Program-made: the position numbers and the translations under genes | Shown: piece by piece, positions 14,302 to 18,369 of the stretch | Layout: every line of letters starts with the position of its first letter | Numbering within the stretch: the first letter of the stretch is position 1 | DNA from: Candidatus Hydrothermarchaeum profundi | Lineage (GTDB): Archaea > Hydrothermarchaeota > Hydrothermarchaeia > Hydrothermarchaeales > Hydrothermarchaeaceae | Assembly (NCBI GenBank): GCA_002011125.2 | Contig: MTMF02000009.1 | Location: 428,006 to 492,005, forward strand | Length of the DNA stretch: 64,000 bases | Direction: 5' to 3' | Notes under the pieces: model-generated | The model's database searches: none | What the model was told of the DNA's origin: nothing | What the model saw: the letters and a program-made list of their open reading frames with translations, nothing else

Positions 14302-15651
14302 ATGGATCTAGAAGGTTTCGCGAGAAGAAAAATACTAGAAGGATACGATCACCAGGAAATAATCAAAGAATTAAAACAAGCAATAAAAGAATTCAAAGAC
14401 TGGAGTGAGGAAAGGAACGAAGAGTTTTCTAAAGCGGTATTAGACGAAGTTATAACCTCAGAATCATACAAAAAAATTAAGGATACTTTCTTAAGAAGGC
14501 TTTTAGGATATCCTACAGCAGAAGTCAAGATGGGAGAATTTGGCGTAGGTTCTAGGGGCGAGGGAGATTTTTTTGTTCATAGAAAAATCGCTGATATTCT
14601 TGGGAGTATGGGCGAGGTTATTGGACCTCAACAGCAGGATGATGCAGGAGTAGTTAAGGGTTCAGGTAGATACTTAACTGTCTCAATAGATGGAATGCAC
14701 TCCAGACTTAGTGAGTTTCCTTTTTTAGCAGGCTTTCATGTTGCCAGAGCTGCTTTGAGGGACGTTTACGTTATGGGATCTAAACCTGTAGCATTGATAA
14801 GCGACCTTCACTTAGGAGACGATGGAGATATAGGGAAGCTTCTTGATTTTACAGCCGGCGTTTCTACTATTTCAGAACTAACAGGAGTTCCAACCGTAGC
14901 TGGGAGTACTCTACGTATAGGAGGAGACATGGTATTTGGCGACCGCTTGGTCGCAGCAGTCGGAGCTGTAGGAACCTCTTCAGAAAGACCTAAAGCTAGA
15001 AAAAATGCTGAAGAAAGTGATGTAATCCTTATAACCGAAGGTAAAGGAGGCGGAACAATCACTACTATAGCGATTTATAATGGATATTTTGATACAATTA
15101 AGGTTACATTGAATGTTGAGTTTATGAAAGCATGTGAAACAATTATGCAGAAGGGTCATATGCAAAGTATTCATGCTATGACTGATGTAACTAATGGTGG
15201 ATTAAGGGGAGATGCTATAGAGATCTCTAGGACTTCTAAAAAGAAACTGATATTTTATGAGGAAATGCTTAATAAATTTGTAAACCCAGAAGTTATGAAA
15301 ATGCTTAAAGACCTGAATATAGATCCCTTAGGTATATCTACCGACTCTTTATTACTAATTTTACCCGAGAAGGAAGTTGAAGATGTTAAGAAATGTTTAA
15401 ATGAAGTAACGAAAACCTACGAAATAGGTAGAGTAGAATCCGGAAAGGGAGTTAAAATTCTTGGTGAGGGAGAAACTGAACTCAAGCCTCTATTCCGTGA
15501 GGCGCCCTACACTAAGATAAAAAAAATTATTGGTGAAAAAACACCGCAGAATGTGGAAAAAATGAAAGAAAATATAGAAAAAGCTAAAAAAGAAGCGGTA
15601 GAAAAAAAGAAAGAGATAATAAAATTTATTGGAGGTGGCAGCTTTGACTGA
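14302..15651 (+). CDS. AIR synthase/HypE/SelD-fold (PurM-like) protein with N-terminal extension, function unknown
   Basis: [32 protein letters not shown] motifs. Confidence 0.8.
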
Positions 15652-16528
15652 AACAGGCACTGAAAAAGTGAAGAGAGGCTTGGCTCAAATGCTTAAGGGA
15701 GGAGTAATAATGGATGTTACAAACGCAGAGCAGGCGGTAATCGCGGAAGAAGCTGGAGCAGTAGCAGTAATGGCTTTGGAAAGAGTGCCCGCGGATATAA
15801 GAGCTGCTGGCGGAGTAGCTAGGATGGCAGATCCAAAAAAAATCGAGGAAATAATGGACGCTGTCACCATACCTGTGATGGCTAAAGTTAGAATTGGACA
15901 TTTCGCTGAAGCCCAGATACTTGAAGCTATGGGAGTTGACTTTATAGATGAAAGTGAAGTTCTCACTCCAGCTGATGAAAGGAATCATATTGACAAAACT
16001 AAATTTAAAGTGCCTTTTGTATGCGGCGCAAGAAGTCTTGGAGAGGCTTTACGTAGGATTGGAGAGGGTGCTGCGATGATAAGGACTAAAGGAGAAGCAG
16101 GTAGCGGTAATGTAGTAGAAGCTGTAAGGCATATGCGAGAGGTGATGGGGCATATTAGAAAACTTCAAAACATGTCAGAAGACGAACTTATGACTGAAGC
16201 TAAAGAGATGGGTGCACCATATGACCTAGTAAAAGAAACCGCTAAGCTTGGAAGACTACCTGTAGTTAATTTCGCTGCTGGCGGAATTGCTACTCCTGCT
16301 GATGCTTCATTAATGATGCAGTTAGGCGCTGATGGTATTTTTGTAGGCTCTGGTATTTTCAAGTCTGAAAATCCTGCTGCAAGAGCTAAAGCAATAGTGA
16401 TGGCTACTACTCACTATGATGATCCAAAGGTATTAATTGAAGCTTCAAAAGGAATCGGAGAGGCTATGAAAGGATTGGATATTAGAAGCCTTAAGCCTGA
16501 AGAACTCCTTCAAACTAGGGGGGTTTGA
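15644..16528 (+). CDS. pdxS: PLP synthase lyase subunit
   Basis: [38 protein letters not shown] motifs; TTG at 15644 follows GGAGGTG. Confidence 0.97.
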
Positions 16529-17760
16529 TGCTAAAGTTTTTTAATACCCTCTCCAGAAAGAAGGAGCTTTTTTTTCCTTTGGAGGAGGGAAGAGTAAAAC
16601 TTTACACATGTGGTCCTTCTGTTTATGACACTCCTCACCTTGGTAATTATCGAACTTATGCTTTTGAAGATACATTAAAAAGATACTTAGAATTCAAAGG
16701 TTTTGAAGTATTCCATGTAATGAATGTTACCGATGTTGAAGATAAAGCTATAAGAGCTGCGAAAAAAGATAAAATATCTCTTAAAGAACTTACCAATAGG
16801 TATTTAGATATTTTTTTAAAAGATATGGATTTACTGAAGATAAAGCTTCCTAATATCTGTGCTATAGCTTCTGAACATATAAAAGATGCCGAAAAACTTG
16901 TTAAAATCTTATTAAACAAAGGTTTAGCTTATAAGGATGAAAAAGGCAATGTTTTCTACGATATATCAAAATTTAAGGGATATGGAATGCTTTCAAAAAT
17001 TAAACTCACCGATAAAATGTTAAACCGCAGAGTTACAAAAGATGATTACCAGAATTGGGAGGCAGGAGACTATGTTCTTTGGAAAGCATGGAAGAAGAGT
17101 GATGGAGAAGTATATTGGGAGAGTTATTTAGGGAAAGGACGTCCAGGATGGCATCTAGAGGATACTGCTATCGCCCTTCGATATTTAGGTGATAGATATG
17201 ATATCCACTGCGGTGGTGCGGATAATGTTTTCCCACACCATGAAAATCTAATCGCGCAAAATGATGGAGTAACCGGCCATAAAACTGTTAATTACTGGCT
17301 CCATTGCCGACATTTAATAATAGAAGGAAGAAAGATGTCAAAACGTACCGGAAATGTAGTGTATCCCCAAGACCTTATCTCTAAAGGTTTTACTCCAGAA
17401 GGCATAAGGTATCTATTCTACTCTACCCACTATCGTAGAAGATTGAACTTCACTATGGATGAAATGCGGAAGGCGGAAGAAGAAGTCAAACGCCTAAATG
17501 GATTTATAAAATCCCTAAAAATAGGAGGAAATGAATATATCCCTGAGATAAAGGAGGAAGTTGATAAATTAATTAAAGATTTTGAGAAATCGATGGATGA
17601 CGATCTTAATACTGTGTTAGCTCTCAAGGCAATTTCAAATATGATTGAAAATCTGGGGAAATATAGGAATGTTAAGCTGTCAAAAGATAATTACACGGAG
17701 ATTATGGAAACTATCAAAAGAGTTAATAGCGTGCTCCCTATCTTTCAATATTATCTGTAA
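16525..17760 (+). CDS. Non-canonical class I cysteinyl-tRNA synthetase paralog (altered Zn site, no anticodon-binding domain)
   Basis: [37 protein letters not shown] motifs; the protein ends at 411 aa after the helical bundle. Confidence 0.85.
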
Positions 17761-17793
17761 GGATGTTACACGTTAAAGTATAAAAAAAAAGAT

Positions 17794-18369
17794 ATGCTTA
17801 TAGGTGTTTTAGCATTACAAGGTGATGTCTCAGAACATTTTAATATCTTGCGAAATTTATTGGCAGCCGAAGAAGTAACTTTGGTTAAAACTAAGGAAAG
17901 GATATCAGAACTTGACGGGCTAATTATACCTGGCGGGGAGAGCACGACCGTTGGAAAACTGATGGTTAAATATGGGATAGATAAAAAGATTAAGAGTAGT
18001 GAAAATTTAGCGATTTTTGGAACCTGCACAGGAGCTATTCTACTTGCTAAAAAAATATTAGGAATGAAACAGTTTACCCTTAATCTTATGGATTTTGAGG
18101 TCGAGAGAAATGCATATGGACGCCAAAGAGAGAGCTTCGAGGCTGACCTAGCGATTCCGGTATTAGATGGGAAGCCGTTTAGAGGTATATTTATCAGGGC
18201 CCCAGTAATTAAAAATGTTGGGAAGAAAGTTAAAGTTCTAGCGAGATATAAGAATGACCCAGTGCTAATAGAAGAGGACAGATTTTTGGCTGCAACTTTT
18301 CACCCAGAACTAACAGATGACATAAGGATACATAAATACTTCATAAAAATCGTTAGGAAGTATCTCTAA
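17794..18369 (+). CDS. pdxT: PLP synthase glutaminase subunit
   Basis: GVLALQG, PGGEST, GTC.G, RNAYGRQ, FIRAP, FHPEL motifs. Confidence 0.97.
   Translation: MLIGVLALQGDVSEHFNILRNLLAAEEVTLVKTKERISELDGLIIPGGESTTVGKLMVKYGIDKKIKSSENLAIFGTCTGAILLAKKILGMKQFTLNLMDFEVERNAYGRQRESFEADLAIPVLDGKPFRGIFIRAPVIKNVGKKVKVLARYKNDPVLIEEDRFLAATFHPELTDDIRIHKYFIKIVRKYL

Follow-up and report, generated by a model that had tools for sequence, protein, structure and literature searches.

A truncated cysteinyl-tRNA synthetase paralog with an altered zinc pocket

We analyzed a 64,000-nt stretch of the genome of Candidatus Hydrothermarchaeum profundi (hereafter the window; its source assembly comprises 2.19 Mb in 19 contigs and is 97.65% complete) and find that it encodes a paralog of cysteinyl-tRNA synthetase (CysRS) that lacks the anticodon domain and carries a rewired zinc site. 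The gene (16525..17760, forward strand) was delimited in the list of open reading frames (ORFs) and identified by Pfam, TIGR00435, an AlphaFold2 (AF2) model and fold matches. It is a member of a family of truncated CysRS paralogs, in which it is sister to a metagenomic clade (clade B below) and has a pocket that departs from the canonical one at E238. Judging from the sequence, the most likely reading, to which we give about an even chance, is that the product still works as an adenylating enzyme, with a changed pocket and an acceptor that it would choose without reading an anticodon.

The domain content of the protein is that of a CysRS without its last domain. A Pfam scan finds tRNA-synt_1e (PF01406, 305 bits) and DALR_2 and does not detect the CysS_C anticodon domain (PF23493). 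The protein matches positions 1-400 of the 466 of the CysRS model TIGR00435 with 377.7 bits, where the cut-off is 340, and scores 223.3 bits with the MshC model TIGR03447, under its cut-off of 485.1. Both adenylation signatures are retained in the translation and in the alignment, HLGN (the HIGH signature) at residues 38-41 (16636..16647, forward strand) and KMSKR (the KMSKS signature) at residues 270-274 (17332..17346, forward strand). Here and below, residue numbers refer to the 411-aa form of the protein, and E. coli numbering was set by alignment to CysRS 1li5. DDDLNT is found as well. An initial interpretation of this DNA from its letters (the sequence-only reading) had described intact HLGN and KMSKR motifs and a protein that stops after the DDDLNT helical bundle without an anticodon domain, and it is borne out on both counts by the translation, by the missing PF23493 match and by the point at which the TIGR00435 match ends.

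Two of the four residues of the zinc site are changed in the paralog. In the E. coli enzyme we take H234 and E238 to be zinc ligands, for which a literature search gave no confirmation. The zinc cysteines of E. coli CysRS are C28 and C209 (PMC5660078; this source, like PMC9736012, PMC5389517 and PMC9437257 below, is drawn on in excerpt). By alignment, the first cysteine is retained as Cys29 within YTCGPS (codon 16609..16611, forward strand) and the histidine as His238 (codon 17236..17238, forward strand). The second cysteine is replaced by Asp213 (GAT, 17161..17163, forward strand), which turns GWHIEC into GWHLED at residues 208-213, and Glu238 is replaced by Leu242 (CTA, 17248..17250, forward strand), which turns HHENE into HHENL at residues 238-242. 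Both changes had been noticed earlier; the alignment to 1li5 and the comparison with homologues confirm them and support a true CysRS paralog with a rewired zinc site. The equivalent of Trp205 is also retained. Outside the ligand positions, the helix after residue 209 reads EDTAIAL in place of ECSAMSM, the IAQSE segment reads IAQND, and GARV of the connective peptide (CP) domain reads NRRV, a motif that is altered in both clades of short relatives too.

We compared six pocket positions (C28, W205, H206, C209, H234 and E238) in 233 database proteins and the query. All 193 full-length homologues read C-W-H-C-H-E, an invariance which argues that the changes in the paralog are not chance variation. 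Among the 39 short proteins of this set (the window's own record left out), one is fully canonical and 38 depart from the pattern, with E238 replaced by Gly, Ser or Thr in 28 and H206 replaced by Ser or Asn in 12. C209 is kept in 39/39 short proteins, and none of the 232 homologues compared with the query departs from it; the query alone has Asp at this position, and the combination C-W-H-D-H-L is read nowhere else in the comparison. Searching the phylum's 38 genomes with the degenerate pattern PGWHxED returned only this gene and two other hits in stop-ridden frames. One member of the family thus replaces a zinc cysteine that is otherwise invariant.

The paralog is intact and does not look like a decaying gene. 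Across 65 other sequences, 66 columns reach a conservation of 95% or more; the paralog deviates at 4 of them (range among the others 0-11), and C209D is among the four. The AF2 model, built from a 28-row alignment, has a pLDDT of 95.0 and a pTM of 0.93 with no disordered segment, and its best structural matches are canonical CysRS (PDB 1LI5/1U0B/8QHP; template modeling (TM) score 0.86-0.89) and then MshC (PDB 3C8Z/8HFM; TM 0.83-0.84). The stretch is present in public runs of three studies, one of which is possibly the origin of the window DNA; none of the public runs listed for it is RNA. A run of the second study yields identical contigs over 15855-16869 and 17110-18316. Run X3 of the third study has a ~2% diverged contig over 17144-17800, which differs by 14 substitutions and by 7 nt inserted behind 17750. 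This insertion brings the stop forward and shortens the protein by 3 residues, which indicates that the extreme C-terminus of the paralog is variable.

Both changed codons, GAT 17161 and CTA 17248, are unchanged in the X3 contig. Relative to the window, codons 207-411 carry 7 synonymous and 6 non-synonymous codon changes, and the ratio of non-synonymous to synonymous rates (omega) is ~0.23-0.26 (binomial p 0.009-0.015 against neutrality), an estimate based on 13 changed codons of these codons only, in one contig at a depth of 5.4. Run X3 is without coverage of 16549-17100, and the diversity figures exclude the N-terminal half of the paralog. All 6 replacements fall in codons 333-401, the C-terminal helical part, and none in codons 207-332. 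The omega of pdxT in the same strain is 0.045, from 12 synonymous changes and 2 non-synonymous ones. A dN/dS comparison had been proposed as a check in the sequence-only reading, and with this omega and with both changed codons kept in a diverged strain it comes out in favor of the gene.

A family of truncated archaeal paralogs and its exporter

The closest proteins to the query in a search of 5.8 billion proteins are 51-53% identical (its own record aside). Truncated members of the family measure ~390-435 aa and end past the helical bundle, and all 39 other truncated database homologues share the end point of the query. Two clades make up the relatives described here. Clade A is a second CysRS-like gene of ~391-412 aa in 16 of 40 relatives' genomes, accompanied in nearly all cases by a full-length CysRS copy; across its 16 loci E238 is lost in 14 and C209 kept in all 16. 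Clade B is made up of the closest proteins just named, eleven metagenomic ones of 411-434 aa that are without PF23493 and read GW[S/N]IEC. In a maximum-likelihood tree the query is the sister of clade B, with a value of 100 in the Shimodaira-Hasegawa-like approximate likelihood ratio test (SH-aLRT). A tree constrained to hold every truncated form in one clade is worse by only 2.8 log-likelihood (lnL) units and is not rejected by the approximately unbiased (AU) test (p-AU 0.44), so that the data are compatible with one common origin of the truncated family, if they do not demonstrate it. Scans of contigs from genomes and metagenomes with clade B queries returned mostly canonical CysRS at ~50% identity, and among the scanned contigs clade B is found only at loci L145, L146 and, in part, L151. 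The tryptophanyl-tRNA synthetase of L145 shows a uniform 57-64% identity to its counterparts in the phylum, which suggests that the hosts of clade B fall outside the order that was sampled.

The truncated paralogs are linked to an exporter. In clade A, 11 of 16 places have genes for an ATP-binding cassette (ABC) ATPase (~320 aa) and an ABC-2 permease (~249 aa) directly after the paralog, often with a stop/start overlap. The same pair follows the paralog at both clade B loci with flanks (L145 and L146). The ATPases exceed the cut-off of the DrrA subfamily (325 and 363 bits versus 312), and the permeases score best to DrrB, slightly under the cut-off. When the permease served as tblastn query against loci L001-L224, matches occurred only at truncated-paralog loci. 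The host of the window has the orthologous ABC pair as well (C9:1177187-1178916; 72% and 77% identical to the pair of a same-family relative), with no CysRS-like sequence beside it; the clade A gene was not found in the host genome, and the query is followed by pdxT, not by DrrA/DrrB-type genes. This wider exporter-linked family, with its recurrent loss of Glu238 or His206, goes beyond what the sequence-only reading contained.

Other neighbors of clade A paralogs were observed. At L049, L051 and L053 (family f2, genus g18) the paralog is not beside the ABC pair and is divergent to genes for an MTHFR-C-terminal-like protein, MTHFR and a decarboxylase dependent on pyridoxal 5'-phosphate (PLP), with a 413-418-aa ORF beyond. 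At L045, L046 and L047, genes for KaiC-like ATPases are located divergently upstream of the paralog, and one of those at L047 is fused with a small Arf/Ras-like GTPase domain.

In literature searches, neither truncated CysRS paralogs of archaea nor their DrrAB linkage were found described, and no protein of the CysRS fold was found to be reported with Asp209. NCBIfam has no separate model for the truncated family and all tested members score above the cysS threshold, while the clade A proteins are named 'cysteine--tRNA ligase [Candidatus Hydrothermarchaeaceae / Hydrothermarchaeales archaeon]' at NCBI. Members of the family are at present annotated plainly as 'cysteine--tRNA ligase'; their exporter operon is conserved, and their cysteine/zinc pocket is changed in a systematic way.

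The host genome has its own machinery for Cys-tRNA. The genes cysS, sepS and pscS, whose presence the sequence-only reading had left to be checked, were all found; they encode a canonical CysRS of 466 aa with PF23493 (547.7 bits), SepRS (749.6 bits) and SepCysS (365.5 bits, barely above the cut-off). Because a full-length CysRS and the SepRS/SepCysS pair are both present, the paralog is not the cell's Cys-tRNA synthetase and is free to do something else. The host thus has three routes touching Cys-tRNA, namely CysRS, SepRS/SepCysS and the paralog. It also has two clearly different tRNA-Cys(GCA) genes (G000:C9:158068-158138 on the reverse strand and 1032912-1032984 on the forward strand), both with U73 and G37. 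In a survey of relatives the first type is present in 22 of 41 genomes and the second in 36 of 41, and the two may represent a division of labor between CysRS and SepRS. The first type directly adjoins canonical cysS in genomes G010, G014 and G019 and lies near cysS in G025 and G015. We considered a dedicated tRNA for the paralog and rejected it, since both tRNA-Cys types are widespread in relatives and their presence does not track the paralog. No tRNA gene is located anywhere in the window, and none of the 45 tRNAs of the genome has a UCA anticodon. With three Cys-tRNA routes and two tRNA-Cys species, the host offers a compact setting in which to study how recognition of cysteine can be rewired.

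Proposed function and competing explanations

Truncated paralogs of aminoacyl-tRNA synthetases, for example MshC, YadB/GluQRS, CysRS* and the amino acid:carrier-protein ligases, have repeatedly proved to be new enzymes. The paralog derives from the ~400-aa archaeal family that elsewhere is co-operonic with a DrrAB-type exporter and typically lacks Glu238 or His206. In the host it has lost the exporter linkage and is coupled into pdxS-pdxT, with Cys209 changed to Asp, Glu238 to Leu and the helix past residue 209 remodeled. Since HLGN and KMSKR are kept, adenylation would still take place, with ATP bound through these two motifs and an acyl-adenylate formed. The metal would probably be held by Cys29, Asp213 and His238; as in MshC, the protein would supply three ligands, here with Asp in place of Cys. 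The product may be handed to a non-tRNA nucleophile, or a tRNA may be recognized by its acceptor end, and the substrate could be Cys or another compound. A tRNA-independent ligase or an altered substrate, as had been suggested earlier, is plausible.

MshC offers a precedent for a three-ligand site, its zinc being bound by C43, C231, H256 and the substrate thiol (PMC9736012), and the loss of Glu238 in the truncated paralogs mirrors this arrangement. Like the query, this Cys:GlcN-Ins ligase of mycothiol synthesis is a ~410-aa CysRS paralog without an anticodon domain. However, MshC keeps both Cys ligands whereas the second ligand of the query is Asp, the two have separate origins (the query is archaeal and MshC actinobacterial), and the query stays under the cut-off of TIGR03447; mycothiol genes were not seen beside the query, and no search aimed at mshA, mshB or mshD was made. 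The query resembles canonical CysRS in its fold and, as far as the helical bundle, in the order of its domains, and it shares the HIGH and KMSKS signatures, Cys28, Trp205, His234 and a score above the family cut-off. It differs from the canonical enzyme in the missing C-terminal domain, in Asp for Cys209 and Leu for Glu238, in the altered post-209 helix and GARV motif, and in being redundant with a canonical copy. With clades A and B it has the truncation point in common and, as in 28/39 database members, the loss of Glu238, but it alone has Asp209, is not beside an exporter and sits on a far longer branch.

Several observations weigh against a functional adenylating enzyme with a retuned pocket. 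In E. coli, Cys-to-Asp mutants of the zinc ligands (C28D and C28/209D) show strongly attenuated translation activity (PMC5660078), and hence activation of Cys may be impaired in the paralog, not retuned. Asp209 and Leu238 are confined to one lineage. The query has the longest in-group terminal branch of the tree (0.76, median 0.19), and its separation from clade A is only marginal, as forcing the two together changes the likelihood by -35.6 lnL units with a p-AU of 0.045. Lastly, the omega described above comes from few changed codons in one part of the gene.

Synthetase paralogs located beside exporters are a known resistance arrangement, and this counts for an explanation that we consider fairly unlikely, in which the paralog is an auxiliary enzyme that charges tRNA-Cys without reading the anticodon, for instance for a single tRNA-Cys species or as a spare that withstands inhibitors or stress. 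Such a role is in line with the score above the TIGR00435 cut-off, with the retained CP domain and stem-contact/helical bundle, and with the two different tRNA-Cys(GCA) genes of the genome. It also has a precedent in CysRS* of Desulfobacterales, a second cysS copy with no anticodon domain and an altered CP1 region that has been proposed for the SelC* tRNA-Cys (Mukai et al. 2017, PMC5389517; PMC9437257). Its gene follows selC*/selB*, and an opal-suppressor tRNA-Cys is regarded as its substrate (PMC5389517); the native protein was inactive in E. coli, where activity was seen with an engineered stand-in (PMC5389517). The query, however, lies in a pdxS/pdxT context with no tRNA in the window and no UCA-anticodon tRNA in the genome, selB* itself not having been searched for. 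Moreover, two of the four residues of the cysteine-selecting zinc site are changed, the attenuated E. coli mutants C28D and C28/209D speak against normal charging (PMC5660078), GARV of the CP domain has become NRRV, and it is canonical cysS, not the paralogs, that tRNA-Cys type 1 adjoins in relatives.

A different role is suggested by work on cysteine persulfide. E. coli CysRS forms this compound in a PLP-dependent reaction that needs neither ATP nor tRNA, with PLP at K73 and K269, and the activity survives in C28D, C28/209D and mouse CARS2 C78/257D while translation activity is lost (Akaike et al. 2017, PMC5660078). The paralog could accordingly have abandoned aminoacylation and become a dedicated PLP-dependent cysteine persulfide synthase (CPERS) that is co-expressed with the PLP synthase, which we judge to be unlikely. 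The separation-of-function mutants of that study are Cys-to-Asp changes and the query is naturally Cys209Asp, the equivalents of K73 and K269 (K74 and K273) are kept, and the gene appears translationally coupled to pdxS. By analogy with the persulfide precedent, a natural C209D copy in a PLP-synthase operon is suggestive. However, K73 and K269 occur in almost all CysRS and hence do not discriminate, the retained HLGN argues that ATP is still used, C28 is retained, and persulfide activity is known from full-length enzymes (PMC5660078), unlike the truncated query. In addition, the usual partner of the family is an exporter, not a PLP gene, and the slot between pdxS and pdxT holds a thioredoxin-like gene or nothing in relatives, so that the PLP link may be positional chance. 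In a broader form that we regard as quite doubtful, tRNA charging would have been dropped in favor of a PLP-dependent cysteine persulfide or supersulfide synthase, and the DrrAB-linked family of Hydrothermarchaeota and related archaea would make and export a Cys-derived thiol or persulfide. A paralog that did prove to be a persulfide synthase would give this debated activity its first dedicated enzyme from nature.

It strikes us as improbable that the paralog is a functionless orphan under relaxed constraint and heading for loss. Its branch is the longest of the in-group, its substitutions are private, the exporter context of the family is lost and its omega is ~5x that of pdxT. Against this, the ORF is intact, 62 of the 66 near-invariant columns are kept, omega is ~0.25 (p ~0.01 against neutrality) with codons 207-332 free of replacements, the start is coupled to pdxS with a Shine-Dalgarno-like motif, and the same gene appears in runs of three studies. 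The sequence-only reading had allowed that the changes might be private and the gene decaying; private they are, but the conserved columns, omega and the AF2 model contradict decay. Finally, a split CysRS with its anticodon domain encoded elsewhere, which had been raised as an alternative and which only the truncation favors, is barely credible and was rejected on a genome search with PF23493, which matched the C-terminus of the canonical CysRS (35.4 bits) and otherwise a stretch of 13.5 bits (E 0.198) inside an 818-aa frame, with the genome 97.65% complete and 39/39 other truncated database homologues ending likewise.

The pdxS-pdxT operon and neighboring genes

The paralog lies between pdxS (15629..16528, forward strand; PLP synthase subunit, PF01680 370 bits) and pdxT (17794..18369, forward strand; glutaminase subunit, PF01174 182 bits), whose start is 33 nt past the paralog stop; the Pfam matches of these flanking ORFs confirm the position given in the sequence-only reading. 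From TTG 16525 the protein has 411 aa and from ATG 16528, the next codon, 410 aa, and the ATG is the more likely start. The database record of the paralog (P0001) has 410 aa. At the junction with pdxS, which reads ...ACTAGGGGGGTTTGATG..., the ATG overlaps the pdxS stop TGA (16526-16528) and is preceded at 5 nt by AGGGGGG, which resembles a Shine-Dalgarno motif, the layout expected for translational coupling of the paralog to pdxS. The GC content at third codon positions (GC3) of the paralog is 0.297, like that of the neighboring genes, which implies that lateral acquisition, if any, was not recent.

The operon is common to relatives as a block in which an AIR-synthase-like gene is followed by pdxS and then pdxT, and the CysRS-like gene in the slot between the latter two is found in the host genome only. 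In the 18 relatives' loci that show both pdxS and pdxT whole, the two genes are adjacent (7-110 nt apart) in nine and separated by a 0.9-1.0 kb gap with a thioredoxin-like gene in the other nine, with one further partial case. A special link of the paralog to pdxS-pdxT is not supported, since the position is not conserved. We likewise rejected a conserved PLP linkage of the family, as pdxS and pdxT are not beside clade A or B paralogs and the slot varies among relatives. Two same-family relatives have pdxS (L242 and L253); their contigs end inside this gene and are therefore uninformative on the slot in the closest kin. The occupant in other families of the order is a thioredoxin/DsbA-like protein of 301 aa that is membrane-anchored and contains a CPFC motif (for example, L238:578-1483 on the reverse strand and L245:2387-3292 on the forward strand, and at 7 further loci). 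Among NCBIfam models it scores best, though under the cut-off, with the Rcas_1661 thioredoxin-like (seleno)lipoprotein family.

Further upstream in the window, an AIR-synthase-related gene of 449 aa (14302..15651, forward strand) was identified by PF00586/PF02769 and by synteny. Its product is PurM/ThiL/HypE/SelD-like and scores under every NCBIfam cut-off, and the gene is located directly upstream of pdxS in ~23 relatives' loci. Elsewhere in the host genome, outside the window, we identified a tRNA-Pyl(CTA) gene and a gene for the PylS C-terminal domain (294.5 bits versus a cut-off of 178) that are ~420 nt apart (G000:C9:1320440-1321652), and this sequence evidence suggests a pyrrolysine system in the host.

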